IMG/VR virus record: IMGVR_UViG_3300044723_001636
Span: 1-24,387 of that record
Reading direction: 5' to 3' (one strand)
Origin: a virus
Lineage: Duplodnaviria; Caudoviricetes
DNA length: 24,387 nt
Shown here: one piece after another, positions 462 to 19,582 of the stretch
How the letters are laid out: every line of letters starts with the position of its first letter
How positions within the stretch are numbered: position 1 is the stretch's first letter
Notes under the pieces: generated by a model
The model's database searches: none
The model's input: the letters and a program-made list of their open reading frames with translations, nothing else
What the model was told of the DNA's origin: nothing
Translations under genes and position numbers: made by a program

Positions 462-1009
462 AATTAGTATCACCAGACGATCCAATATTAAAACAACCAT
501 TACCAACTTTTGATGATTCGCAACTAGAAGACTATGGTTATAAAGACAGACAAAAACTATCTGACGATATGTTTGAATTTATATCAAAGAATGGTGGTAT
601 AGGTCTTACTGCTAATCAAATAGGTATGAGATTAAATATGATGGTGATAGGTGGACACCCTAGTATAGAAAATGGTATGAAACTAACGTGTTTTAATCCT
701 GTTATAATAAGCACAAGTGCTGAACAAGTAACTATGAAAGAGGGTTGTTTATCATATCCATTCTTATTTTTTAATATAAAAAGACCTAGAAAAGTGGTGG
801 TTAAATACAGAGATGTAGATGATAAACTACAAGAAGGTCACCTTGACGGATATATGAGTAGAATATTTCAACACGAGTATGATCACACAGAGGGTAGAAC
901 TATGCTTGACAATGTTTCAAAATTCAGATATAATCTAGCAATGAAAAAAGCAGAAAAATTAATGAAGAAACATATGAGAGAAATGAAAAATGCCGAGAAA
1001 GACAACTAA
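458..1009 (+). CDS. def: Peptide deformylase
   Basis: All three PDF motifs present: GIGLTANQIG, EGCLS, QHEYDH. ATGA overlap with the gp46 stop. Confidence 0.95.
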   Translation: MKLVSPDDPILKQPLPTFDDSQLEDYGYKDRQKLSDDMFEFISKNGGIGLTANQIGMRLNMMVIGGHPSIENGMKLTCFNPVIISTSAEQVTMKEGCLSYPFLFFNIKRPRKVVVKYRDVDDKLQEGHLDGYMSRIFQHEYDHTEGRTMLDNVSKFRYNLAMKKAEKLMKKHMREMKNAEKDN

Positions 1010-1232
1010 AACTTATGTTCACGTCAATCAACACGTTATACGAAGTAATAAAAAACATAACAAAAACGAACCAGTTATCACAGTTAAGAAAGGTTCTAAA
1101 AACACTTACTGTCACGAAGTCAAAATACTCGGTCCTAGTACCGTGGTTTATGGCGGTAATGATAAACCTCTTCTTTCTTGTGGTGCTAGAGTTGTCATTT
1201 CGACTGAATCAGATGTAGAGATTGTCAAATGA
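990..1232 (+). CDS. Small conserved phage hypothetical protein
   Basis: 80 aa basic ORF (YVHVNQHVIRSN...PVITVK...LSCGARVVI) overlapping both neighbours. Resembles small proteins common in marine T4-like phages (from memory). Confidence 0.75.
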   Translation: MPRKTTKTYVHVNQHVIRSNKKHNKNEPVITVKKGSKNTYCHEVKILGPSTVVYGGNDKPLLSCGARVVISTESDVEIVK

Positions 1233-2368
1233 CATACAAACCATATAAACTACAAGATGTAATAGATGCATCTAATAAAGAACTATTTACAGTCATATCT
1301 ACATTTGCAGGTGGTGGTGGTTCATCAACAGGTTATAGATTAGCAGGTGCTAAAATACTTGCAATCAATGAGTTTGTTGATTCAGCAGTAGACACATATA
1401 AAGCAAACTATCCACAGACACCTGTATTACCTGGCGACATAAAAGAATTGACAGGTGAAGATTTATTAAAAACTGCAGGTGTTCAAAAAGGTGAACTAGA
1501 TATTTTAGATGGTAGTCCACCTTGTTCTGCATTTAGTATATCAGGTAAAAGAGAAAAGGGTTGGAACTCAACAAAGAAATATTCTGATGACAAACAAGTA
1601 GAAAATATAGAAGATTTATTTTTTGAGTACATTAGAATAGCAAATGATATACAAGCAAAGGTTGTTATAGGTGAAAACGTAGCAGGTATTATGGTTGGTG
1701 ATGCTAAAAAATATTTCAATAGAATCATAAATGCTTTTGATAAAATAGGTTATGAGGCGGTTGGTAAAGTGATGAACGCCGCTGACTTTGGAACACCACA
1801 AGCAAGACAAAGATGTTTTTTTGTAGCAGTAAGAAAAGATGTGATGGATACATTAGGGTTAAACTTTATGACAATGGAGGGTGAATTATATCCTAAACCA
1901 AATAGCACTCAACCTACGTTAAAAGATGCTATTGATGATTTAGAGAATGATAAAGAAGAAGAACAGATGTTACTTGATTTTGTTCAAGGTTCTTTTCAAA
2001 AGAAGTGGATTGAATTGTTACCATTTAATCCAGATAAACATAGAAAACCAAGTGATCCAGAATTTATAGACATAAATCCTAAAAGATCAATGTTTAATAT
2101 GATTAGACCAGCACCAAACTTACCTTGTCCGACAGTTACACAAGCAGGTCAAAAGAAAGGTTTGTCTGGTGTGTTTCACTATAATAGTAATCGTAAATTA
2201 ACGATAAAAGAATTAAAAAGAGTTATGGGTTTACCAGATGATTTTAAACTTGAAGGTGACTTTGATCAACAAGCAGAAAGAGTTGGTAGAATGGTAGCAC
2301 CTCTAATGATGAAAGAGTTATCTGGTACCATATATAAAAATATAATTAAACCATTTAATGATAGATAA
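1229..2368 (+). CDS. C5-cytosine DNA methyltransferase-family protein; candidate DNA carboxymethyltransferase
   Basis: Motif I FAGGGG, motif IV GSPPC, motif VI ENV, motif VIII QARQR, motif IX RKLTIKELKRVMGLPDDF. Motif X reads GRMV rather than the usual GN(S/A)V. Confidence 0.93.
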   Translation: MTYKPYKLQDVIDASNKELFTVISTFAGGGGSSTGYRLAGAKILAINEFVDSAVDTYKANYPQTPVLPGDIKELTGEDLLKTAGVQKGELDILDGSPPCSAFSISGKREKGWNSTKKYSDDKQVENIEDLFFEYIRIANDIQAKVVIGENVAGIMVGDAKKYFNRIINAFDKIGYEAVGKVMNAADFGTPQARQRCFFVAVRKDVMDTLGLNFMTMEGELYPKPNSTQPTLKDAIDDLENDKEEEQMLLDFVQGSFQKKWIELLPFNPDKHRKPSDPEFIDINPKRSMFNMIRPAPNLPCPTVTQAGQKKGLSGVFHYNSNRKLTIKELKRVMGLPDDFKLEGDFDQQAERVGRMVAPLMMKELSGTIYKNIIKPFNDR

Positions 2369-3188
2369 ATTACTTCAAGATATAGTTGAAAAAGAATGCA
2401 AAGATAATGATGTAGCAGTTTTATTATCTGGTGGTGTCGATAGTAATAGTGTTTTATTTACTGCTAATCGTCTAGGTAAAATAGTGCATTGTTATTCTTT
2501 TCATTTAGACACAGGTTCATCATATGATTCTATAAAAGCACAAGAAGTATGTAATAAGTTTAATTTTGATTTAACACTAATAGAAGTGCCAACAAATAAT
2601 TTAGAAAATGATTTTATAACACTTGCTGAAAAGTATAAGTGTCAAAAGAAAACACATTTTGAATGCACGTTTCCATTTATGTATGTGTTTCCAAAAATAA
2701 AAGAAAAGTATGTGCTATCTGGTTGGGCGGCAGATGGTCATTTTGGTTTAAGTAAAAAAGCAAGTTTGCATTACAAACACCCCAAAGAAAAGTTTGATAA
2801 GTTTAGAAGAGATTATTTTTCTGTAGAAAATCCAGTAGGGGTTAGACAAATAGAAATGTTATGCAAAGAACACAATAAAGTATTATCAGTTCCATATCTA
2901 GATAAAAAAGTTTTTGATTATTTCATACAGTTTGACTGGGACACACTCAATAAACCCAAAGAAAAATACGAAGTTAGAAAATGCTTTCCAGAGTTTAATG
3001 AGATAAATCTTAAAAATCATTTAAATTTACAATTAATTTCTAGGGTTGACAAAATATTTGAAACCTTGTTAACTAGTGAAAAGATTAATATTGGAAAGAG
3101 AAAAAGAGTTATGGATATTTGTAAAGACTGGTATAATGTAAATAAAAACTTAAATAATCCAACTATACTTGAGGACAAGTTATTATGA
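2358..3188 (+). CDS. Asparagine-synthetase C-terminal-domain-like ATP pyrophosphatase (PP-loop); candidate amide ligase
   Basis: PP-loop LLSGGVDS, SGWAADGHFG (cf. SGEGADELFG), VPYLDKKV (cf. VPFLD), EKYEVRKCF (cf. EKxxLRxAF). No N-terminal glutaminase domain. Confidence 0.85.
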   Translation: MIDKLLQDIVEKECKDNDVAVLLSGGVDSNSVLFTANRLGKIVHCYSFHLDTGSSYDSIKAQEVCNKFNFDLTLIEVPTNNLENDFITLAEKYKCQKKTHFECTFPFMYVFPKIKEKYVLSGWAADGHFGLSKKASLHYKHPKEKFDKFRRDYFSVENPVGVRQIEMLCKEHNKVLSVPYLDKKVFDYFIQFDWDTLNKPKEKYEVRKCFPEFNEINLKNHLNLQLISRVDKIFETLLTSEKINIGKRKRVMDICKDWYNVNKNLNNPTILEDKLL

Positions 3189-3856
3189 AATTTACATTTG
3201 CACAATCAGAAGAAGGATTTGATAATCACATAGATAAGTCTATTAGAGGTTATGCTGACTTATGGGGTGATGTTGTCAACATTGGTAAATACTTTATAGA
3301 AGATGATACTAACGTTGTAGATATAGGTTGTTCTACAGGTAAACTTCAAAAGTCTATGATAAAATTGTATGAAGAACATATACCCAATGCTAAATACGTT
3401 GGTGTAGAAATAGAAGAAGACTTTTATAAAGATTATCCTGTTGATGAATTGAAATACTCTAATCTAAAGTATTTTAGAGATGATGTAAGAAACTTTAAAT
3501 TTACAAACTGTAGTTATGTAACATCTTTATTTACATTACAATTTATGTCACCAAAGTCTAGAAAAGAAGTAATACAAAGTATATACAATGGTTTAAATAC
3601 AGGTGGTGCATTTGTATTTTCTGAAAAAGTATTTGCACAAAACCCTAGAGTACAAGATATGATGACATTTATGTATTATGATCATAAAAGAAAAAACTTT
3701 ACAGAAAAAGAAATATTAGATAAAGAAGTCCAGTTAAGACATATGATGAAACCAAACACAAAAAATGAATTGATAAAAATGTGTACTGATGCTGGATTTG
3801 AAACACAAACATTTTGGCAAAATTATAACTTTATAGGAGTGATAGCACTTAAATGA
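3185..3856 (+). CDS. cmoA: CmoA-like carboxy-S-adenosylmethionine synthase / class I SAM-binding protein
   Basis: N-terminal FTF...FDNHIDKSIRGY (cf. CmoA FTF...FPDMIQRSVPGY), DIGCSTG, FTLQF, IYNGLNTGGAFVFSEK, C-terminal WQNYNF. Confidence 0.85.
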   Translation: MKFTFAQSEEGFDNHIDKSIRGYADLWGDVVNIGKYFIEDDTNVVDIGCSTGKLQKSMIKLYEEHIPNAKYVGVEIEEDFYKDYPVDELKYSNLKYFRDDVRNFKFTNCSYVTSLFTLQFMSPKSRKEVIQSIYNGLNTGGAFVFSEKVFAQNPRVQDMMTFMYYDHKRKNFTEKEILDKEVQLRHMMKPNTKNELIKMCTDAGFETQTFWQNYNFIGVIALK

Positions 3857-4680
3857 AACAATTCTTTATACCAAATACTGTTACAGAATTTAGCAATGAA
3901 AATCCATTTGTATTGATAGCAGGTCCTTGTCAAGTTGAAAGTAAAGAACACGCAATACAAATATGTGGTTCATTATTAGAAATATCAATGTTATACAATA
4001 TACCTTTAGTATATAAATCATCTTTTGATAAAGCAAATAGAACAAGTATCAATTCACAAAGAGGATTAGGTTTAGAAAAGTCTTTACAAGTATTTGAAGA
4101 AATACAAAAACAATTTAATGTACCTGTTGTTACAGACGTTCACGAACCAGGTCAATGTAAAGAAGTAGCATCAGTGGTTAATATGTTACAGATACCAGCA
4201 TTTTTATGTAGACAAACTGATTTACTTGTAGCATCAGCAGAAACACAAAAAACTGTAATGATTAAAAAAGGTCAGTTTATGGCACCTTGGGATATGAAAA
4301 ATGTCATAGAAAAAATAAGTCATATAAATGATAAGATAGTGTTATGTGAAAGAGGTACAAGTTTTGGTTATAATAGATTAGTTGCTGATATGACTTCTCT
4401 ACCGATAATGAAAGAAACAGGTTATCCTGTTGTGTTTGATGCAACACATTCAGTACAACAACCAGGTGGTATGGGTGCAACATCTGGAGGTAATCGTGAG
4501 TTTGTACCTGTGTTGGCGAGATGTGCTATGACAATAGGTATAGCAGGTATATTTATGGAAGTGCATCAAGATCCAGACAATGCACCAAGTGATGGACCTA
4601 ATATGTTAAAGTTAGAAGATTTACAAGATTTACTAAAACAGTTATACGACATAGACGAAAGCACGAAAGGTGGGTTTTAA
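3853..4680 (+). CDS. kdsA: KDO-8-phosphate synthase (2-dehydro-3-deoxyphosphooctonate aldolase)
   Basis: IAGPC, KSSFDKANRTS, QIPAFLCRQTD, KKGQF, ERG, FDATHSVQ, EVHQDPDNAPSDG. KANRTS distinguishes it from DAHP synthase (KPRT/S). Confidence 0.95.
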   Translation: MKQFFIPNTVTEFSNENPFVLIAGPCQVESKEHAIQICGSLLEISMLYNIPLVYKSSFDKANRTSINSQRGLGLEKSLQVFEEIQKQFNVPVVTDVHEPGQCKEVASVVNMLQIPAFLCRQTDLLVASAETQKTVMIKKGQFMAPWDMKNVIEKISHINDKIVLCERGTSFGYNRLVADMTSLPIMKETGYPVVFDATHSVQQPGGMGATSGGNREFVPVLARCAMTIGIAGIFMEVHQDPDNAPSDGPNMLKLEDLQDLLKQLYDIDESTKGGF

Positions 4681-5822
4681 TGGATAAAGAGGTCAAAAGA
4701 ATATATGATGCAGAAATAAATAGACAATCACAAACCATAGAGTTAATAGCATCTGAAAACTTTGCAAGTCAGGCAGTAAAGAAATTATGTGGTTCAGAGT
4801 TTACAAATAAGTATGCTGAAGGTTATCCAGGTAAGAGATACTACAATGGTTGTGAGTATATGGATCAAATAGAACAACTTGCAATAGATGAATTAAAAAA
4901 GTTATATAACTGTGAATATGCTAACGTGCAACCTCATTGTGGTGCAAATGCAAATACTGCCGTCTATCAAGCATTTTTGAAACCAGGTGATACAATACTT
5001 GGTATGGATTTAGCATCAGGTGGTCATTTAAGTCACGGTTCTAAACCTAATATATCAGGTAAAATATATGATGCACATTATTATGGTGTCGATAAAGATG
5101 GTTGGTTAGATTACAATGCAATTAAAGAACAAGCAAAGAAACTAAAACCAAAGATGATAGTTGCAGGTGCTAGTGCATACTCTAGACAAATACATTGGTA
5201 TATCTTCAGAGAGATAGCAGATGAGGTAGGTGCATATCTATTATGTGATATGGCACATTACTCTGGACTAATAGCAGGTGGTAGTTATGATAATCCAGTT
5301 CCTCACGCAGACGCAGTTACATCAACTACACATAAAACATTGAGAGGTCCAAGAGGTGGTATAATCTTATGGGATAATGATGAACATACTAAAAAGATAA
5401 ATTCTGCTATCTTTCCTGGTACACAAGGTGGTCCTTTGATGAATATGATCGCCTCAAAAGCACAAGCATTTAAAGAGGCGAATACAACAGAATTTAGACA
5501 ATACATTCAAAATGTAATCAATAATGCAAAAGCAATGGCAGAAGTATTCATAGAGAATGATTTTAATGTATTGACAGGTGGTACTGATAGTCATATGATG
5601 CTGATAGATTTAAGTGATAAAAAGTATTCTGGTAGAGAATCAGCAGATAAACTAGAAGAAATGGGTATTACAGTCAATAAGAATGGTATACCTAATGATC
5701 CTAGAAGTTTTGTAGAAACATCAGGTATTCGTATAGGAACTGCCGCCGAAACAACAAGAGGTAGACCAGCAAGTTGGTTTCGTGATGTTGCTAAAAGAAT
5801 AATAAACATCATTACACTGTGA
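4680..5822 (+). CDS. glyA: Serine hydroxymethyltransferase
   Basis: LIASENF, NKYAEGYPGKRYYNGC, GGHLSHG, DMAH, PLP-lysine motif TTTHKTLRGPRGG, FPGTQGGP, SGIRIGT. Compact at 380 aa. Confidence 0.97.
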   Translation: MDKEVKRIYDAEINRQSQTIELIASENFASQAVKKLCGSEFTNKYAEGYPGKRYYNGCEYMDQIEQLAIDELKKLYNCEYANVQPHCGANANTAVYQAFLKPGDTILGMDLASGGHLSHGSKPNISGKIYDAHYYGVDKDGWLDYNAIKEQAKKLKPKMIVAGASAYSRQIHWYIFREIADEVGAYLLCDMAHYSGLIAGGSYDNPVPHADAVTSTTHKTLRGPRGGIILWDNDEHTKKINSAIFPGTQGGPLMNMIASKAQAFKEANTTEFRQYIQNVINNAKAMAEVFIENDFNVLTGGTDSHMMLIDLSDKKYSGRESADKLEEMGITVNKNGIPNDPRSFVETSGIRIGTAAETTRGRPASWFRDVAKRIINIITL

Positions 5823-5860
5823 CATAATTACAACACTTTCAAATAAAATTGGTAAGGGGG

Positions 5861-5888
5861 TTGAAATATCGCCTTTGAATCACCATAT
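5861..5888 (+). promoter_or_regulatory. Candidate sigma32 (RpoH)-type promoter
   Basis: TTGAAA (5861-5866), 14-nt spacer, CACCATAT (5881-5888), matching the TTGAAA-N13/14-CCCCATNT consensus; intergenic. Confidence 0.5.
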
Positions 5889-5939
5889 TAATAGTATGAC
5901 TTGATAAAATTAAATTAATAAAAAAACAAAACTTTTTTG

Positions 5940-5968
5940 TTGACTTTTCGATAAAACCTTGCTATTAT
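5940..5968 (+). promoter_or_regulatory. Sigma70-type (early) promoter
   Basis: TTGACT-17 nt-TATTAT with an A/T-rich UP-like tract upstream; SD-like GAAAGGA before ATG 6015. Confidence 0.7.
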
Positions 5969-6014
5969 ACTAGTATAAGTGATTCGTTAACAAAAAAAGA
6001 AAGGACAATACACT

Positions 6015-6377
6015 ATGTTAAATTATGAAATGAACTACTTTTCAAATGTGAAGTTTTACTATGATACGAATAGCATCAGTTCAAAGTATCTCGAAAATCT
6101 TTATAAGATTTCTTATAACTTCGTTGATTATAAGATTCGTACCTCGAGTATGCGTGTTTTTGAAAAGAATTTTAAGATGCAAATGCAAAAGTTAATCAAT
6201 ACTTATTTTGATAAGTCTATTCAATCTCAAAACTACATTGTTAAGATTAAGCAAGTAAAGATTGAAAATAATGATGAACAGACGATTTACATTGATAAGA
6301 CTGTAGATTCTGATGAACTTCTTGTAAATTTACTAAAGAATTCTAGTAACATTGTAAGCATTTTACCAAAGTTTTAG
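6015..6377 (+). CDS. Hypothetical protein (probably early-expressed)
   Basis: 120 aa ORF with its own promoter and SD; no recognisable motif. Confidence 0.7.
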   Translation: MLNYEMNYFSNVKFYYDTNSISSKYLENLYKISYNFVDYKIRTSSMRVFEKNFKMQMQKLINTYFDKSIQSQNYIVKIKQVKIENNDEQTIYIDKTVDSDELLVNLLKNSSNIVSILPKF

Positions 6378-6384
6378 ATACTAT

Positions 6385-6428
6385 TGTTAGTGTCTTGACA
6401 AAAAAAGTCTTGACACTAACACATTTTT
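6385..6428 (+). terminator. Hairpin (possible intrinsic terminator) overlapping a promoter
   Basis: TGTTAGTGTC (6385-6394) pairs with GACACTAACA (6412-6421), inner GAC/GTC pair, A7 loop, followed by a T-tract. Confidence 0.55.
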
Positions 6429-6438
6429 CTGATAACAT
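6410..6438 (+). promoter_or_regulatory. Sigma70-type promoter
   Basis: TTGACA (6410-6415)-17 nt-TAACAT (6433-6438) with an extended -10 TG. Confidence 0.6.
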
Positions 6439-6468
6439 TACATTTTAACTAATTTGAAAGGGACAATT

Positions 6469-7599
6469 ATGTCAAAACTATATGATGAAAACGTATTCTC
6501 CTACTACCAAGAGAGTAATAGCAAAAATCTGATAACAGTAGACAAAGAAACATTATTGAATTTATTAATGATTAAAGATGCTTATATTAATCTAGAGAAA
6601 AACTATAATGTAAAAGTAACTAAAGATTTACTTGATGTTAATGATATTGCAATAGTAGAAAGCAATAATATTGCTCAAGCATACGGAAATGACCAATCTA
6701 TTATAAATGAGTATATGAATTTGTTTGCTACACGAACTTATAATCCTTTTTATGCATTTCCTCCTGTTGTAGTTTCAACAAAACATATGAAAAATATATT
6801 AGTGTTGTATGCTACTTTAGGTGGATTTAAGAGAATTAAAGCACTAAAAAGAGCAGTTGAAAAAGGATTGTGTGAAAATAAAATGATACCTGTAATTAAA
6901 GTTGATATCGAAGAAACAGATGAAAGAGTGATAAGAGAAATAGAACTAAAAATTAACAGTGTTGAAAATGCTGAAGATTCAGTTAAGAAGATTGAAAAAA
7001 CAACTAGAGATATAGATTCTATTGCTAACTCTGTAAATGCATATATAAGAGAAGTAAAACTTTTAAATCCTAAAGATGATAATATTCCAGAGAGTGTTTA
7101 TAGAGATTGTTTGTCTATCTTTGAGTATGATCTACAAAAAAGTAAATATAGTTTACCAGACATAATAACTAGATGTAGAAGAAATGTTGGGTGTAAAGTT
7201 CCAGTTTTAAAAAGCACTTCAGAGATGACTGATTTGGCAAGAAATTCATCAAATGTTGAAGATTATTGTAGAGAAAATGGTTTTAAAAAACCTCTTATAG
7301 TTGCTTACAATAAGAAAAATGGTGCAATTTCCAATAAAGATTTACCATTGAAGTATTTGAACTCAAAACTAAAAGCAGAAAAAGAAAACTATGATGCAAT
7401 TTTTTGTATCGTTCAACATACAGGTGTGACATCAAAAGTTGCAAATGAACACAAGAAAAAGTATCTTAATTATGAAAATAGTCAAGAAAGCACTAGTAAC
7501 AACTTTAAACAAGTTGCTAACAGTAATGTGCCTGTAATTATGGGTGTTTGTTTAGATGATGAAATTACTTTGCAAAGTGAGAATTACAATGCAGAATAG
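6469..7599 (+). CDS. Hypothetical protein with a degenerate ParB/Srx-like domain
   Basis: ATG 6469 follows SD GAAAGGGA (ORF track starts at TTG 6454). PPVVV...YATLGGFKRIKAL...IPVIKV...IELKINSVEN resembles the ParB N-terminal pattern PIxV...Y.IxxGxRRxxA...IPVIV...LIEN. Confidence 0.55.
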   Translation: MSKLYDENVFSYYQESNSKNLITVDKETLLNLLMIKDAYINLEKNYNVKVTKDLLDVNDIAIVESNNIAQAYGNDQSIINEYMNLFATRTYNPFYAFPPVVVSTKHMKNILVLYATLGGFKRIKALKRAVEKGLCENKMIPVIKVDIEETDERVIREIELKINSVENAEDSVKKIEKTTRDIDSIANSVNAYIREVKLLNPKDDNIPESVYRDCLSIFEYDLQKSKYSLPDIITRCRRNVGCKVPVLKSTSEMTDLARNSSNVEDYCRENGFKKPLIVAYNKKNGAISNKDLPLKYLNSKLKAEKENYDAIFCIVQHTGVTSKVANEHKKKYLNYENSQESTSNNFKQVANSNVPVIMGVCLDDEITLQSENYNAE

Positions 7600-8185
7600 T
7601 TTAAATTATTTCAATGCAACAAACCCCAAAGTTATAGGATTGTTAATAGATCAAGATAAATCAATAAGAAATAATGTTTTAAAACTTAAATCGGTAAGAA
7701 AGACAATGATCTGGAATAAACCATATCGTGATAAGTGTGTGCAGACAGATGATGTACACGGATTAAGAACAATTTATCACGATATATTCTTTGGTAAAAT
7801 TAGTGAATGTAAAATATATACAGGTGTTCAAAGTGTTGCAGATTTAGAAAGTAATAATACAAAATCTACTGGAGAACATATTTTTCCTTCGTTTGGGATG
7901 GCACCATATTTTTATGATAATGTAAATAATTGGTCTGAAGAGAAGTTTTTAAAAAATGCATTACCATTATGTCTTGTTAGTAAAACAACAAGTCAACAAA
8001 ACACAGATTTATCAAATCAAAAAAATGTTTTGATACTAGATAAGTATGAAGTCGCAAATATAGAATGTTATTTTTGTGATGAATACTCTTCTCAAATTGG
8101 TTTACCTAAATGTATAAAGGATTTATTACCAATAGAGTTAATTGAATATGATAGAAAAAATATCAAAAAAGGGGTTGACATTTGA
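7589..8185 (+). CDS. Hypothetical protein with a possible HNH-like motif
   Basis: Likely start ATG 7589 overlapping the upstream stop. GEHIFP...LCLV...QQN...SN resembles the EHxxP...L.L....N...SN pattern of DUF1524-type His-Me finger nucleases. Confidence 0.45.
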   Translation: MQNSLNYFNATNPKVIGLLIDQDKSIRNNVLKLKSVRKTMIWNKPYRDKCVQTDDVHGLRTIYHDIFFGKISECKIYTGVQSVADLESNNTKSTGEHIFPSFGMAPYFYDNVNNWSEEKFLKNALPLCLVSKTTSQQNTDLSNQKNVLILDKYEVANIECYFCDEYSSQIGLPKCIKDLLPIELIEYDRKNIKKGVDI

Positions 8186-13570: not shown

Positions 13571-16057
13571 ATGAATTTTTACAAGAATGTGATTGTACAC
13601 AGAGGCAAACTTCTGATTAGAGGTGTGTTGAATGGTAAAGAGTATCAAGAAAAACTTGACTTCAGTCCCACACTTTATGTATTGTCTAATGAACAAACAG
13701 AATACAAAACACTTCAAGGTCAAAACTTAAAACCTATACGACTTAATTCTATTGCTGATGCTAAAAGATTTAAGAAAGAAGTAGAAACACAGAACTCACC
13801 AATCTTTGGTTTAGATAGATTTCACTATCAGTATATTGGTCAAGAATATCCTGGTAGAATAGAATGGTCTAGAGAATACATTAAAATATTTACATTAGAT
13901 ATCGAAACAACTTGTGAGGCAGGTTTTCCTGATGTTGAAAACCCAACAGAAGAATTAATTTGTATTACAATTAAAAATCAATCTAACAAACAAATAATTA
14001 CTTGGGGTGTTGGTGACTTCTATCACGATAGAGATGATGTGACTTATGTAAAATGTAAAAGTGAAAATGAATTGTTAATGCAGTTTATGATGTTCTGGAC
14101 CAAAAATTATCCTGACGTAATTTCCGGGTGGAATACTAAATTTTTCGATTTACCATATCTAATGAATAGAATAAGACATTTACACGGTGATAAAGTAATC
14201 AATAAATTATCGCCTTGGAAACTAATTCAAAGAGATGAAATAGAAGTTAGAGGTAAAGTACAAACTGTTTATAACTTGTATGGTATTGTTATGTTAGATT
14301 ATCTTGATCTATATAGACAATACATACCACAGAAACCTGAAAGTTATAAACTAGATCACATTGGTGAAATTGAACTAGGTCAAAATAAAAATGAAAACCC
14401 TTACGATACATTTAAAGAGTTTTATGAAAAAGATTTTCAAAAGTTTGTAGACTACAATATACAAGATGTTGAACTTGTTGATGCTCTTGAAGATAAGTTA
14501 CGTCTTATAGATTTAGCATTAACTATTGCGTATGAAAGTAAAGTAAACTATGGTGATATATTTTCACAAGTTAGATTATGGGATACGTTGATTGCAAATC
14601 ACTTAATGACAAAAAAGATATGTGTTCCACCACGAGAAGATCAAGTAAAAGAAACAAAGTATGTTGGTGCATATGTAAAAGAACCCAAACCTGGTTTATT
14701 TAAATGGGTCGTATCATTCGATATTAATTCTCTATACCCACATATTATTATTCAGTATAATATATCACCAGAAAAAATCATAGGTGCAGAGAAAGGATTG
14801 TCTGTAGAAAAAATGTTAGAAGGTAAATCTATGTTATCTTATCTAGAAACAGAGGGTGCTTGTATCACCCCAAACGGTGCAAAGTTTAAAACAGATAGTC
14901 AAGGTTTCTTACCAGAGATGATGGAAACAATGTATCAAGAACGTGTCATATACAAAAATAAAATGCTTGATGCTAAAAAACAAAAAGAAAAAACAAAAGA
15001 TGTTAAATTAGATAATGAAATATCACGATATCACAATATTCAATGGGCGAGAAAGATTGCATTAAATAGTGCTTATGGTGCCATTGGTAATCAATACTTT
15101 AGATATTATGATGTAAAACAAGCAAGTGGTATTACAACTGCTGGTCAGTTTATTATTCGTTTTATAGAAAATAAAATGAATGAGTATTTAAACAACGTGT
15201 TACAAACACAAGGTAAAACTGATTATGTTGTTGCGTCAGATACCGATAGTATATATGTTGTTTTAGATAAACTTGTAGAGAAAACTTGTCAAGGTAAAAC
15301 CAATGACCAAATATTAAATTTTTTAAATAAAGTATGCGATAGTAAATTAGAACCATACATAGAAAAGTGTTTTGATGAACTAGCAAGATACACTAATGCA
15401 TACAAAAATGCTATGGTTATGAAACGTGAAGTTATATCCAATAAAGCAATATGGGTTGCAAAGAAAAGATATATGATGAATGTTTTAGATGAAGAGGGTG
15501 TTCGTCTTTCTAAACCTAAATTAAAAATTATGGGTATTGAGGCAGTAAAATCTTCAACACCTCAAGTGTGTCGTGGTAAAATTAAAGAGGCGATAAACAT
15601 TATTATGAATAAAGATGAGAGTGCTTTGCAAAACTTTATTCAAGATTTTAAGCAAGAGTATTTTAAATTATCTGCTGAACAAGTTTCTTTCCCTAGGTCT
15701 TGTAATAATCTTAAAAAGTATAGGTCATCTAAAGATATTTTTATCAAAGGGTCACCTATTCACGTTAAGGGTGCTTTGATATATAATTATCAAATACAAA
15801 AAATGAAATTGCAAAACAAGTATCCTTACATACAAGAGGGTGATAAGATTAAGTTTGTTAAGTTACTAGAGCAAAATCCATTTAGATTTGATGTTATAAG
15901 TTATGTAACTAAATTACCTACAGAATTCAAACTACAGAAATGCATTGATTATGAAGTACAATTTCAAAAGACATTTCTTGATCCTATGCGTTTCATACTT
16001 GAGGCAATTGGTTGGTCAGCAGAAAAACAAGCAACACTGGAGGATTTTTTTCAATGA
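13571..16057 (+). CDS. 43: Family B DNA polymerase (T4 gp43)
   Basis: ExoI LDIET, ExoII GWNTKFFDLPY, ExoIII YNIQDV; SFDINSLYP, KIALNSAYGAIG, ASDTDS, KKRY; C-terminal clamp-binding LEDFF. Confidence 0.98.
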   Translation: MNFYKNVIVHRGKLLIRGVLNGKEYQEKLDFSPTLYVLSNEQTEYKTLQGQNLKPIRLNSIADAKRFKKEVETQNSPIFGLDRFHYQYIGQEYPGRIEWSREYIKIFTLDIETTCEAGFPDVENPTEELICITIKNQSNKQIITWGVGDFYHDRDDVTYVKCKSENELLMQFMMFWTKNYPDVISGWNTKFFDLPYLMNRIRHLHGDKVINKLSPWKLIQRDEIEVRGKVQTVYNLYGIVMLDYLDLYRQYIPQKPESYKLDHIGEIELGQNKNENPYDTFKEFYEKDFQKFVDYNIQDVELVDALEDKLRLIDLALTIAYESKVNYGDIFSQVRLWDTLIANHLMTKKICVPPREDQVKETKYVGAYVKEPKPGLFKWVVSFDINSLYPHIIIQYNISPEKIIGAEKGLSVEKMLEGKSMLSYLETEGACITPNGAKFKTDSQGFLPEMMETMYQERVIYKNKMLDAKKQKEKTKDVKLDNEISRYHNIQWARKIALNSAYGAIGNQYFRYYDVKQASGITTAGQFIIRFIENKMNEYLNNVLQTQGKTDYVVASDTDSIYVVLDKLVEKTCQGKTNDQILNFLNKVCDSKLEPYIEKCFDELARYTNAYKNAMVMKREVISNKAIWVAKKRYMMNVLDEEGVRLSKPKLKIMGIEAVKSSTPQVCRGKIKEAINIIMNKDESALQNFIQDFKQEYFKLSAEQVSFPRSCNNLKKYRSSKDIFIKGSPIHVKGALIYNYQIQKMKLQNKYPYIQEGDKIKFVKLLEQNPFRFDVISYVTKLPTEFKLQKCIDYEVQFQKTFLDPMRFILEAIGWSAEKQATLEDFFQ

Positions 16058-17208
16058 TAAAATTATATAATGACGATTGTTTAAAGATAGTAGAAAAATT
16101 AGTAGATGAAGGTATACAAGTTGATTCGATTGTAACTGACCCACCATATCATCTGACATCTATTGTAGAAAGATATGGTAAAGAAGGTTCTGCACCAGCA
16201 AAAGACAAAGATGGTTTATTTCAAAGACAGTCAAAAGGTTTTATGGGTAAAGAATGGGATGGTGGTGATATTGCGTTTAGAGAAGAAACTTGGGAACTTT
16301 TTATGAAAGTATTGAAACCAGGTGGTCATCTACTTGCGTTCTCTAGTAGTCGAACATATCATAGAATGGCAGTTGCGATAGAAGATGCTGGTTTCAGTAT
16401 TCGTGATCAGATTATGTGGTTATATGGTAGTGGGTTTCCGAAGAGTTTAAATATAGGAAAAGCAGTAGATAAGAAATTAGGTAATAAAAGAGAAGTAATT
16501 GGAACTAAAGAATGTGGTTATCAAGTTAGTATTTCTAAAACTAGAAAAGAACAAGGTAATAGACCAAATTTAACTAATGCAACTAAAGAAGTGATTGTCG
16601 ACAAGGGAGATACAGAATATGAGGGTTGGGGAACTGCATTGAAACCAGCACACGAACCTATCGTTCTTGCAAGAAAACCACTATCCGAAAAATCTATCGT
16701 TGCAAATGTACTAAAACATAAAACTGGTGGAATACATATAGATGCGAGTAGAATTGAATACGCAGATGAAAATGATAGAAGTGGGTGGCATAAAACTGGT
16801 GGTGGTGGAAAAGGTTATATGGACACAAGTACATTTAAAATAAGAAAGATAACACCAGAGGAAATACAAGAGAGAACAAAGAATGGTAGGTTTCCAGCAA
16901 ATGTAATGCATAATGGATTAGAAGAAGATTGGGCGAGATACTTCTATTGTGCTAAAGCATCAAAGTCTGAAAAGGGTGATAATCCACACCCAACAGTAAA
17001 ACCATTAAAGTTAATGAAATACTTATGTAAATTAATTACACCAAAGGGTGGGACAGTATTAGACCCATTTATGGGAAGTGGTTCTACTGGTATAGCATCA
17101 AAAGACGAAGGGTTTGAGTTTATAGGTATTGAAAGAGAAAAAGAGTATTTTGAGATTGCAGAAAAAAGAATAAATATAACATCACCTTTAGAGAGTTTTA
17201 TGAAATGA
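16054..17208 (+). CDS. DNA amino-methyltransferase (N6-adenine/N4-cytosine), beta class
   Basis: Catalytic TDPPY near the N terminus, HPTVKP, SAM-binding LDPFMGSGSTG near the C terminus. ATG 16054 overlaps the gp43 stop (ATGA). Confidence 0.92.
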   Translation: MIKLYNDDCLKIVEKLVDEGIQVDSIVTDPPYHLTSIVERYGKEGSAPAKDKDGLFQRQSKGFMGKEWDGGDIAFREETWELFMKVLKPGGHLLAFSSSRTYHRMAVAIEDAGFSIRDQIMWLYGSGFPKSLNIGKAVDKKLGNKREVIGTKECGYQVSISKTRKEQGNRPNLTNATKEVIVDKGDTEYEGWGTALKPAHEPIVLARKPLSEKSIVANVLKHKTGGIHIDASRIEYADENDRSGWHKTGGGGKGYMDTSTFKIRKITPEEIQERTKNGRFPANVMHNGLEEDWARYFYCAKASKSEKGDNPHPTVKPLKLMKYLCKLITPKGGTVLDPFMGSGSTGIASKDEGFEFIGIEREKEYFEIAEKRINITSPLESFMK

Positions 17209-17445: not shown

Positions 17446-18753
17446 TTGATAACATTAGGAATCTCAGAGGGGTTTCATAATTCGTCTGTCTGCTATGTAG
17501 AGGACGGTGAAATATTGTTTGCTTCAGAATCAGAAAGATATACTGGTAATAAAAATGATAGGTGGGTACCAGGTGACATATTAGATATGTATGAATGTGA
17601 CAATATGGTTTATTATGAAAAACCATTTAAAAAAAATATTAGAAGACTTTTAGCAGGTCAGTCGTGGGAAAAAACTAGATTTAAATATGATAACTACTAC
17701 TCACATCATTTATCTCACGCCGGCGCAGGTTATTACACTGCACCATTCGAAGATTGTAATATATTAGTTATAGATGCTATTGGTGAATGGGAAACAATAA
17801 CAATATGGGACAATCTAAAAAAGATTAGGTCGTGGTCGTATCCATATTCTCTAGGATTATTATATTCAGCAGTAACACAATATTTAGGATTTAAACCAAA
17901 CGAAGAAGAATATATTGTTATGGGTATGTCAGCATTTGGTGAACCCATTTATAATTATGAATATTTGTTATATGAAAATAATCATAGAGGTATAAAATTT
18001 TTAAAAGGTAAACCAGAAGATATCGCCGCCTCAATACAAAAATTATATGAAGATGAGTTGTTAAAATTGGTAAAGATGTGTCCGAAGAAAAACTTAATAC
18101 TTATGGGTGGTTGTGCTTTAAATTGTGTTGCTAATAGTAAAATCAAAGGTAAGAACATTTGGATTATGCCATCACCCGGTGATGCAGGTAGTTCTTTAGG
18201 TGCATCAGCATTGAAACAAGGTAAGATTAATTGGAAACACCCATATTTAGGTTATGATATTAGCAGACATATAAACCCTAAAGAAGTTGTAGATGATTTA
18301 TTAGAAAATAAAATAGTAGGTGTAGCAAATGGTAGAGCAGAATTTGGACCTAGAGCATTAGGTAATCGTTCTTTATTAGGTGACCCTAGATATGATATCA
18401 AAGATACTGTTAACACAATTAAAAGAAGACAAAAGTTTAGACCTTTTGCACCTGCAATATTAGAAGAGTTTGCAGATGAATATTTTGAAGGTCCTATGAA
18501 TCGTTATATGCAGTTTGTATCAAAAGCAAAACACGACTACAAATCAGTAACTCACGTTGACAATACTGCAAGAGTTCAAATAGTAGAAAAAGATTGTAAA
18601 TCTGTAATAAGACCTATACTTGAAGAGTTTTATGAAAGAACTAAAGTTCCTATGTTGTTAAATACATCTTTAAATATAAAAGGTAAACCTATGGTAAATA
18701 CAGAGAAAGATGCTAATAAGTTTACAGAAAGATATAATGTAAATGTCTGGTAA
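17446..18753 (+). CDS. Carbamoyltransferase (NodU/CmcH/TobZ family)
   Basis: LGISEGFHNSS, ESERYTGNKND, HHLSHA, DAIGE, SLGLLYS, EEYIVMGMS, GGCALNCVAN, PGDAGSSLG, EFGPRALGNRS, FRPFAP, HVDNTARVQ, LLNTSLN. Confidence 0.95.
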   Translation: MITLGISEGFHNSSVCYVEDGEILFASESERYTGNKNDRWVPGDILDMYECDNMVYYEKPFKKNIRRLLAGQSWEKTRFKYDNYYSHHLSHAGAGYYTAPFEDCNILVIDAIGEWETITIWDNLKKIRSWSYPYSLGLLYSAVTQYLGFKPNEEEYIVMGMSAFGEPIYNYEYLLYENNHRGIKFLKGKPEDIAASIQKLYEDELLKLVKMCPKKNLILMGGCALNCVANSKIKGKNIWIMPSPGDAGSSLGASALKQGKINWKHPYLGYDISRHINPKEVVDDLLENKIVGVANGRAEFGPRALGNRSLLGDPRYDIKDTVNTIKRRQKFRPFAPAILEEFADEYFEGPMNRYMQFVSKAKHDYKSVTHVDNTARVQIVEKDCKSVIRPILEEFYERTKVPMLLNTSLNIKGKPMVNTEKDANKFTERYNVNVW

Positions 18754-19582
18754 ATTATTAATTGTTGGTGATAGTTTTTGTTCTAGATATGTCGAGGATA
18801 CTAAAAAGTACCACTCAGTAAAGAAAAAACCTTATATATGGAAAGTACCAAAATTCAAATACTGGTTTGATTATTTAGGTGATAAGTTAAATTTAGAACT
18901 TCTCAATTTATCTTTTCGTGGTGCTGGTAATCAACAAATATTTGACAATACATTATATGCATTAAATACAAATGACGACATAGAGTTCGCAGTAATTTGT
19001 TGGTCAGAGTTTGATAGAATCGATTTACTAAATGGTAGTTCTGAAAATAGAAATTCGGTTCATATCAACTTGTCAAGCACATACACTGATATAAACTCAT
19101 CTAACACCTATAGAAATCTCTCTAAAAAATATAACTATTTCTTTACAGAAGATAAATTATTTGATGCAATGTGTATGATGGATAAATTTATAAACTATTC
19201 CATAACAGTAGATAACTTACTGAAACATAGAAAAATAAAAAATATACAAGCATTTTCAGTTACACCATTTTTATCTATAAAAAAACAAAATAGAATGTCA
19301 CAGATTAGTTTATTTAACGAGTATTTAAATCACGAGTTATTTGATAAGTTGAATGATGAAAATTTCTTTATGTATCCTGGTGTAAAAGAGTTAGGTGGTG
19401 GCAATTTTAATGACCTGACAATAGACAATGAAAATTATGTGTTAAACTCTGAAAAAAATACTAACAAAGAGTTAGCAGATCAAGGGTGGATAATCGACAA
19501 TCACCCTAACGGAGAGGGTAATAAAGTAATTTTTGATAAATTATTTCGTTTCATACTTGACAAATATAAAAAAATAGTATAG
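18743..19582 (+). CDS. SGNH/GDSL hydrolase-like protein
   Basis: Block I IVGDSF, block II NLSFRGAGN, block V DNHPNGEGN. Confidence 0.7.
   Translation: MSGKLLIVGDSFCSRYVEDTKKYHSVKKKPYIWKVPKFKYWFDYLGDKLNLELLNLSFRGAGNQQIFDNTLYALNTNDDIEFAVICWSEFDRIDLLNGSSENRNSVHINLSSTYTDINSSNTYRNLSKKYNYFFTEDKLFDAMCMMDKFINYSITVDNLLKHRKIKNIQAFSVTPFLSIKKQNRMSQISLFNEYLNHELFDKLNDENFFMYPGVKELGGGNFNDLTIDNENYVLNSEKNTNKELADQGWIIDNHPNGEGNKVIFDKLFRFILDKYKKIV

Follow-up and report, generated by a model that had tools for sequence, protein, structure and literature searches.

Predicted CmoX-CmoY-CmoA cassette for cytosine hypermodification in an exchangeable slot of a marine T4-like phage

The cmoX-cmoY-cmoA cassette and its products

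The stretch of DNA analysed here, IMG/VR record IMGVR_UViG_3300044723_001636 (hereafter the window), is a 24,387-nucleotide (nt) fragment of an uncultured phage. It has approximately 30% G+C and carries T4-like replication genes, and three overlapping plus-strand genes, designated cmoX, cmoY and cmoA, occupy positions 1229 to 3856. Their overlaps measure 11 nt (cmoX/cmoY) and 4 nt (cmoY/cmoA), and belong to a wider chain in which orf80 and cmoX share 4 nt, cmoA and kdsA 4 nt, and kdsA and glyA 1 nt. A first-pass annotation of this DNA had described the three genes as overlapping and translationally coupled; the genes and overlaps are present, while the coupling is a reading of those overlaps, from which we infer it. 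The same annotation took the products to be a C5 DNA methyltransferase, an asparagine synthetase-like enzyme devoid of a glutaminase domain and a CmoA-like protein, with which the family matches agree (PF00145, E 2e-53; PF00733 Asn_synthase, E 9e-18, matching from residue 2; and TIGR00740, E 8e-31, respectively).

A cyanophage module of this kind, to which the annotation had alluded, does exist in Synechococcus phage S-B43 (MN018232.1, PDB 8YF3; Yang et al., Nat Commun 2025;17:281, PMC12783734) and is the sole description of the system found in a literature search that had subscription papers outside its coverage. The S-B43 CmoA makes carboxy-S-adenosylmethionine (carboxy-SAM or Cx-SAM), CmoX turns cytosine at GC sites into 5-carboxymethylcytosine and confers HhaI resistance, and CmoY ligates glycine, the glycine amide being present at approximately 75% of GC sites in the phage DNA; the evidence for this pathway is biochemical, structural and derived from native phage DNA (PMC12783734). 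Wild-type S-B43 CmoX (SpCmoX) accepts Cx-SAM as its sole cofactor and the R350N variant accepts neither cofactor. The authors collected 5,615 CmoX, 4,257 CmoA and 2,251 ligase candidates, mostly metagenomic, the CmoX candidates being defined by two criteria, an SPPC motif and Arg at the R350 position; they applied a ligase network threshold of approximately 30% identity, treated a glutaminase domain as the mark of a proposed ammonia cluster, and gave the specificities of other CmoX proteins as undetermined (PMC12783734).

Comparison with annotated phages places the S-B43 orthologues among the best matches of each of the three window proteins. CmoX is 53.4% identical to SpCmoX (194/363) over the full length, and retains the catalytic motif (S96-P97-P98-C99, equivalent to SpCmoX S95-C98), the residues contacting the adenine and ribose of Cx-SAM (F26, E48, F49 and D70, equivalent to F25, E47, F48 and D69) and an Arg at position 354 that corresponds to SpCmoX R350. 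Its best sequence match in the PDB is SpCmoX itself (8YF3, E 7.5e-115), which is also the top fold match (template modelling (TM) scores 0.83/0.94) of the predicted structure (predicted local distance difference test (pLDDT) score 91.4).

CmoY is 51.9% identical to S-B43 CmoY (SpCmoY) over the full length (139/268), and since its PF00733 match begins at residue 2 it lacks an N-terminal glutaminase domain. A protein of 276 amino acids (aa) that consists of the synthetase domain only and is 52% identical to the glycine-ligating orthologue, above the network threshold, resembles the glycine type in these respects. Of 641 candidates in the protein collection 252 are relatives, and in a 26-sequence alignment the window CmoY shares with SpCmoY all 35 invariant columns. 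Its predicted structure (pLDDT 94.3) has structural matches in beta-lactam synthetase, asparagine synthetase and carbapenam synthetase. By analogy with SpCmoY, glycine is probably the amine that is joined.

CmoA is 56.2% identical to the S-B43 CmoA (SpCmoA; 122/217) over the full length, E. coli CmoA (4IWN and 4GEK, E 3e-26) matches it best in the PDB, and the orthology to SpCmoA (56%) together with its adjacency to cmoX marks it as a phage CmoA. The absence of cmoB from the window, asserted in the first-pass annotation, holds: no CmoB family match was obtained among 21 window proteins searched against Pfam or 12 searched against NCBIfam, in a 24,387-nt record that leaves the rest of the genome uncovered, so that the genome may carry a cmoB elsewhere.

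The survey of gene neighbourhoods that the first-pass annotation had called for indicates that the genes co-occur elsewhere. Among the CmoA loci in IMG/VR (80 kept of 221 found), CmoX is nearby in 78/80 and CmoY in 35/80. Of the CmoX loci, 80 were kept of 89 found, and 15 of these have the X-Y-A order of the window. In loci from cellular genomes (n=37, of which ten were left out, nine matches being short of position 354 and one having a stop), CmoA is nearby in 10 of the 12 with Arg at the 354 position and in none of the 15 with Asn or Met. Arg at this position would mark Cx-SAM use, for which the cellular loci serve as an independent control.

Some observations weigh against this identification. 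The TIGR00740 match of CmoA scores 107.6 bits, below the curated cut-off of 193.3. The carboxylate-binding Arg199 of E. coli CmoA (PMC3663124) is not kept, the position aligning with Glu181 of the window protein and an Arg occurring four residues on, at 185. Viewed from CmoX the linkage is sparser, as within the fetched DNA cmoA was found in 27/80 loci and cmoY in 18/80; many of the remainder are truncated or carry CmoX alone before genes that, labelled by eye, resemble cobT/cobS. Finally, no cmoY was found in three contigs with a 'solo' CmoX that do hold cmoA (16–23% complete). Concerning CmoA, active SpCmoA has the same Glu/Arg pattern, as have 101 of 109 CmoA matches in viral loci (loci overlapping between searches), and because of this the window CmoA is predicted to be an intact enzyme of the phage type. 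Concerning linkage, five 'solo' CmoX contigs were searched whole and in 3/5 cmoA lies elsewhere, adjoining a second cmoX, which weakens the notion of a CmoA-independent enzyme.

Gene identity, the conserved residues for catalysis and cofactor contact, the fold and the linkage can be read directly from the window and its relatives. The chemical steps, the presence of the glycine amide in DNA from virions, and the HhaI resistance of carboxymethylated DNA have been shown for the S-B43 orthologues only, and the activity of the window copies is presumed by analogy with them. On these grounds we are highly confident that the three genes are CmoA-CmoX-CmoY orthologues that would act on the DNA of the phage itself once it has been replicated, and, with the same confidence, that the cassette constitutes one more example of the published system, with chemistry that is not new. 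CmoA would convert SAM and prephenate to carboxy-SAM, CmoX would pass carboxy-SAM's carboxymethyl group on to the C5 of cytosine, and CmoY would join the new carboxyl group to glycine, the outcome being phage DNA shielded from host restriction enzymes. The chemistry deduced in the first-pass annotation, from carboxy-SAM through 5-carboxymethylcytosine to an amide, is thereby matched in S-B43 (PMC12783734), where the amine is glycine.

Further loci with these genes were encountered during the searches. Arg-type cmoX and cmoA, in some cases with cmoY, occur in bacterial assemblies (L264-L267, L269, L276 and L278), including those of the isolates Endozoicomonas ascidiicola and Bradyrhizobium jicamae, and these loci are probably prophages. 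In Erwinia and Dickeya jumbo phages all three homologues are spread over approximately 20 kb, cmoX being matched in two pieces, while in Pseudomonas phage PaBG and Yersinia phage fHe-Yen9-02 cmoA and cmoY homologues are adjacent (records H12-H40, H44-H80 and H93-H120). The cultured Methylophilales phage Melnitz (L002, 4010-5227) and L100 (8698-9957) encode a CmoX-like transferase (41%) that sits on a long tree branch; in the Melnitz copy the 354 position is Leu, and the locus of that copy contains neither cmoA nor cmoY.

An exchangeable slot between orf80 and kdsA

With orf80 to its left and kdsA to its right, the cassette sits in a slot whose contents are swappable (Table 1). Sister phages, identified through glyA and kdsA searches, have flanks of 80–91% nucleotide identity to the window. 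In two of them, L128 and L129, nucleotide alignment to the window breaks off where orf80 stops, at 1232, and is restored where kdsA starts, at 3842-3852, and therefore 1229-3856 represents the exchanged unit. The orf80 product is 94–95% identical in sister loci that lack cmo genes, and no cmoX was found in five sister contigs (2–16% complete).

Table 1. Features of the cassette and its surroundings in the window
Feature	Coordinates	Strand	Description
cmoX	1229..2368	+	379 aa; orthologue of DNA cytosine C5-carboxymethyltransferase, second clade, DNA-reading segment unlike SpCmoX
cmoY	2358..3188	+	276 aa; predicted ATP-dependent amide ligase, synthetase domain of asparagine synthetase only
cmoA	3185..3856	+	223 aa; predicted phage-type carboxy-SAM synthase
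orf80	990..1232	+	phrog_8676, no assigned function; left slot flank, outside cassette
kdsA	3853..4680	+	KDO8P synthase; right slot flank, outside cassette
glyA	4680..5822	+	serine hydroxymethyltransferase (PF00464, E 2e-147); flank
candidate sigma-70 promoter	906..934	+	TTGACA-17-TATAAT within deformylase gene

Other cargo occupies the slot in the sister phages. In L129 (5756-8004) it comprises a 378-aa oxygenase-containing protein and an amino-methyltransferase-like gene, while in L171 and L130 (5915-8004) a 2-oxoglutarate (2OG)-oxygenase and a GNAT gene precede the same methyltransferase-like gene as in L129. The oxygenase is of the 2OG-Fe(II) type (PF05118) and is apparently fused to a GNAT-like gene in L129 and separate from it in L171; the methyltransferase-like gene of L129, L171 and L130 is SPPY amino-methyltransferase-like. 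The oxygenase, GNAT-like and SPPY genes form a candidate alternative DNA modification set. In L128 (6682-8001) and L106 (82-954, by visible similarity to L128) the slot instead contains a gene of the DruA/DUF4338 family, of which a 56%-identical DUF4338 member follows the deformylase gene in Mosig (MT647606.1, 14385-15683), a cultured phage; these slot genes encode 430–440 aa.

The polymerase of the window shares 73.8% identity with its counterpart in Pelagibacter phage Mosig and approximately 50% with those of cyanophages, so that Mosig is, by polymerase comparison, the closest cultured phage and a SAR11 host is likely. The slot's other occupants are candidates for undescribed DNA modifications in probable SAR11 phages.

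Upstream of orf80 lies the sole 12/12 match to the sigma-70 consensus in the window, where 0.08 such sites are expected per shuffled window. L128 and L129 retain the two hexamers, with changed spacers, and L171 and L130 lack them; the site lies within coding sequence, and codon constraint may contribute to its retention. It may drive orf80, the cassette, kdsA and glyA.

Elsewhere in the window, an AT-rich insert downstream of glyA (5823-8185) holds three open reading frames (ORFs; 120, 381 and 209 aa) that match nothing in Pfam, NCBIfam, PHROG or the fetched loci; the insert is missing from L129, where hsp20 directly follows glyA. An N6/N4 DNA methyltransferase follows gp43 (16012-17208); in the sister phage G010 this place is taken by another methyltransferase-like gene, of 179 aa (L258, 2335-2874), making this a second exchangeable slot. 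A NodU-like carbamoyltransferase (96% identical in G010), with a 279-aa ORF without a family match behind it, lies at 17446-19582.

A second CmoX clade and its target motif

In a quick IQ-TREE analysis of 44 representatives of 156 full-length CmoX proteins, with support given as Shimodaira-Hasegawa-like approximate likelihood ratio test (SH-aLRT) values only, S-B43 and S-CRM01 belong to one group (SH-aLRT 95) and the window CmoX to the other (SH-aLRT 91, 22 rows; its 12-row subgroup 98). SpCmoX has, after the catalytic Cys, an 8-residue insertion that is missing from the window protein. Residues 286-320 of the latter, which we take to belong to the variable region through which C5 methyltransferases recognise DNA, are 31% identical to SpCmoX and 54–94% identical within their own clade. 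Tandem cmoX pairs with one member per clade occur in L033-L035, and three contigs (G001-G003) carry two cmoX genes approximately 15–16 kb apart, the copies being 71–73% and 52–53% identical to the window CmoX. The presence of one cmoX of each clade per phage suggests different targets, and we lean slightly towards a target motif of the window CmoX that differs from the GC of SpCmoX. In L033-L037 and G001-G003 the two cmoX genes of different clades share one cmoA.

The competing explanation for this divergence is that the chemistry and the GC target are the same and that the second clade is a divergent copy kept for extra dose in two-copy phages. It has some force, as the catalytic region (64% identical to SpCmoX) and motifs IX-X (60%) are conserved, the DNA-reading segment varies within the S-B43 clade too, and no k-mer footprint separates the clades; codon-shuffle and Markov tests gave no dinucleotide signal distinguishing them, in a comparison whose group 'SB43like_only' also took in the second-clade loci L234, L235, L237 and L255 and so offered no clean control. 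A dose effect would, however, leave unaccounted for both the step from 54–94% identity within the second clade to 31% against SpCmoX in residues 286-320 and the pairing in G001-G003 and L033-L035 of one copy per type, and we consider it a credible but somewhat doubtful account. A second possibility, which accepts CmoX and CmoA as published, is that the window CmoY ligates another amine, an alpha-amino acid or ammonia, yielding a base not yet described; 48% of its residues differ from SpCmoY, but the conservation of every invariant column and the absence of a glutaminase domain render this unlikely.

The proposal that cmoX is an ordinary orphan 5-methylcytosine (5mC) methyltransferase with unrelated neighbours finds some encouragement in its Pfam and NCBIfam labels, which are generic Dcm ones. 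It is extremely improbable, given that Arg354 replaces the Asn (HhaI N304 position) that marks canonical 5mC methyltransferases, that 8YF3 scores 387 bits in the PDB sequence search against 89 for true methyltransferases, and that this Arg tracks with cmoA in cellular loci. It was also considered whether kdsA and glyA act as supply genes, glyA providing glycine for CmoY and a gene of the 3-deoxy-D-arabino-heptulosonate 7-phosphate (DAHP) synthase family providing prephenate for CmoA. All five genes belong to one overlap chain behind one candidate promoter, and the substrate of SpCmoY is glycine. However, the kdsA product is a 3-deoxy-D-manno-octulosonate 8-phosphate (KDO8P) synthase (NF003543, 417 bits against a cut-off of 242, with DAHP synthase models below their own cut-offs), cmo genes occur in 0/53 kdsA loci, cmoA or cmoY in 0/37 glyA loci and glyA or kdsA in 0/80 cmoA loci, and sister phages retain kdsA and glyA alongside other slot cargo. 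A supply role is thus very improbable, and kdsA and glyA were rejected as members of the cassette; evolved linkage is largely refuted, although glyA, not linked to the cassette, could add glycine, and this single phage might draw some chance metabolic benefit. A CmoX-like match was seen in three glyA loci, one of the Melnitz type and two partial at 33%.

Site counts were examined for traces of the target. AGCT, CATG and AGCC are avoided by codon-shuffle and Markov measures, likewise in sister phages that lack cmo genes, and the whole window contains zero AGCT, CATG, AGCC/GGCT, GGCC and CGCG sites. This absence probably reflects avoidance of host restriction sites and is largely common to the sister phages. 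GATC has an observed/expected ratio (O/E) of 0.36 in the window against 0.00–0.09 in four sister loci, with window-only/sister-only sites in aligned blocks of 8/0, 3/0, 8/1 and 5/0. These figures were rejected as evidence for GATC as the target: the best p value is 0.008, uncorrected over 136 4-mers and from blocks that overlap; L035 and L234 have a second-clade CmoX yet O/E values of 0.00 and 0.06; and the comparison is confounded by the methyltransferase at 16012-17208, where G010 has another. That methyltransferase may explain the weaker GATC avoidance in the window than in its sisters.

Taken as a whole, the picture of a second, uncharacterised CmoX clade that would carboxymethylate cytosine at a non-GC motif, with marine T4-like phages, probably of SAR11, mixing the clades and swapping the cassette in one slot against other candidate DNA-modifying genes, has in our estimation an even chance of being correct. 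If the non-GC target is true, the window CmoX would be a naturally occurring carboxymethyltransferase that acts on a second target sequence, useful for DNA labelling.

Comparison with known systems

The window enzymes may be set against three families of better-known relatives. CmoX shares the fold and catalytic motifs of canonical C5 DNA methyltransferases (M.HhaI, M.HaeIII and Dcm) and differs from M.HhaI in having Arg354 where HhaI has Asn304 (alignment in PMC12783734). CmoY has the PP-loop adenylation fold of the asparagine synthetase B/beta-lactam synthetase family (Foldseek TM 0.67–0.75), from which it departs in having no N-terminal domain, in its length of 276 aa and in having in SpCmoY an orthologue that acts on DNA. 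CmoA is a homologue of the enzyme in the E. coli CmoA/CmoB tRNA cmo5U pathway (4IWN, 4GEK), whereas its partner is a DNA C5 transferase, cmoB is not among the window genes and the Arg199 position is changed.

Closest of all is the S-B43 system, with which the window cassette has in common the same three overlapping genes in a marine T4-like phage, full-length identities of 52–56%, the SPPC motif, the cofactor residues and carboxylate-binding Arg, and a ligase without a glutaminase domain. The two differ in gene order (X-Y-A in the window, A-Y-X in S-B43) and in location, the window cassette following gp46 and deformylase genes and that of S-B43 following primase. They differ also in CmoX, which in the window is of another clade, has no 8-residue insertion after the catalytic Cys and has a DNA-reading segment only 31% identical to that of SpCmoX, and in the host, which for the window phage is probably no cyanobacterium.

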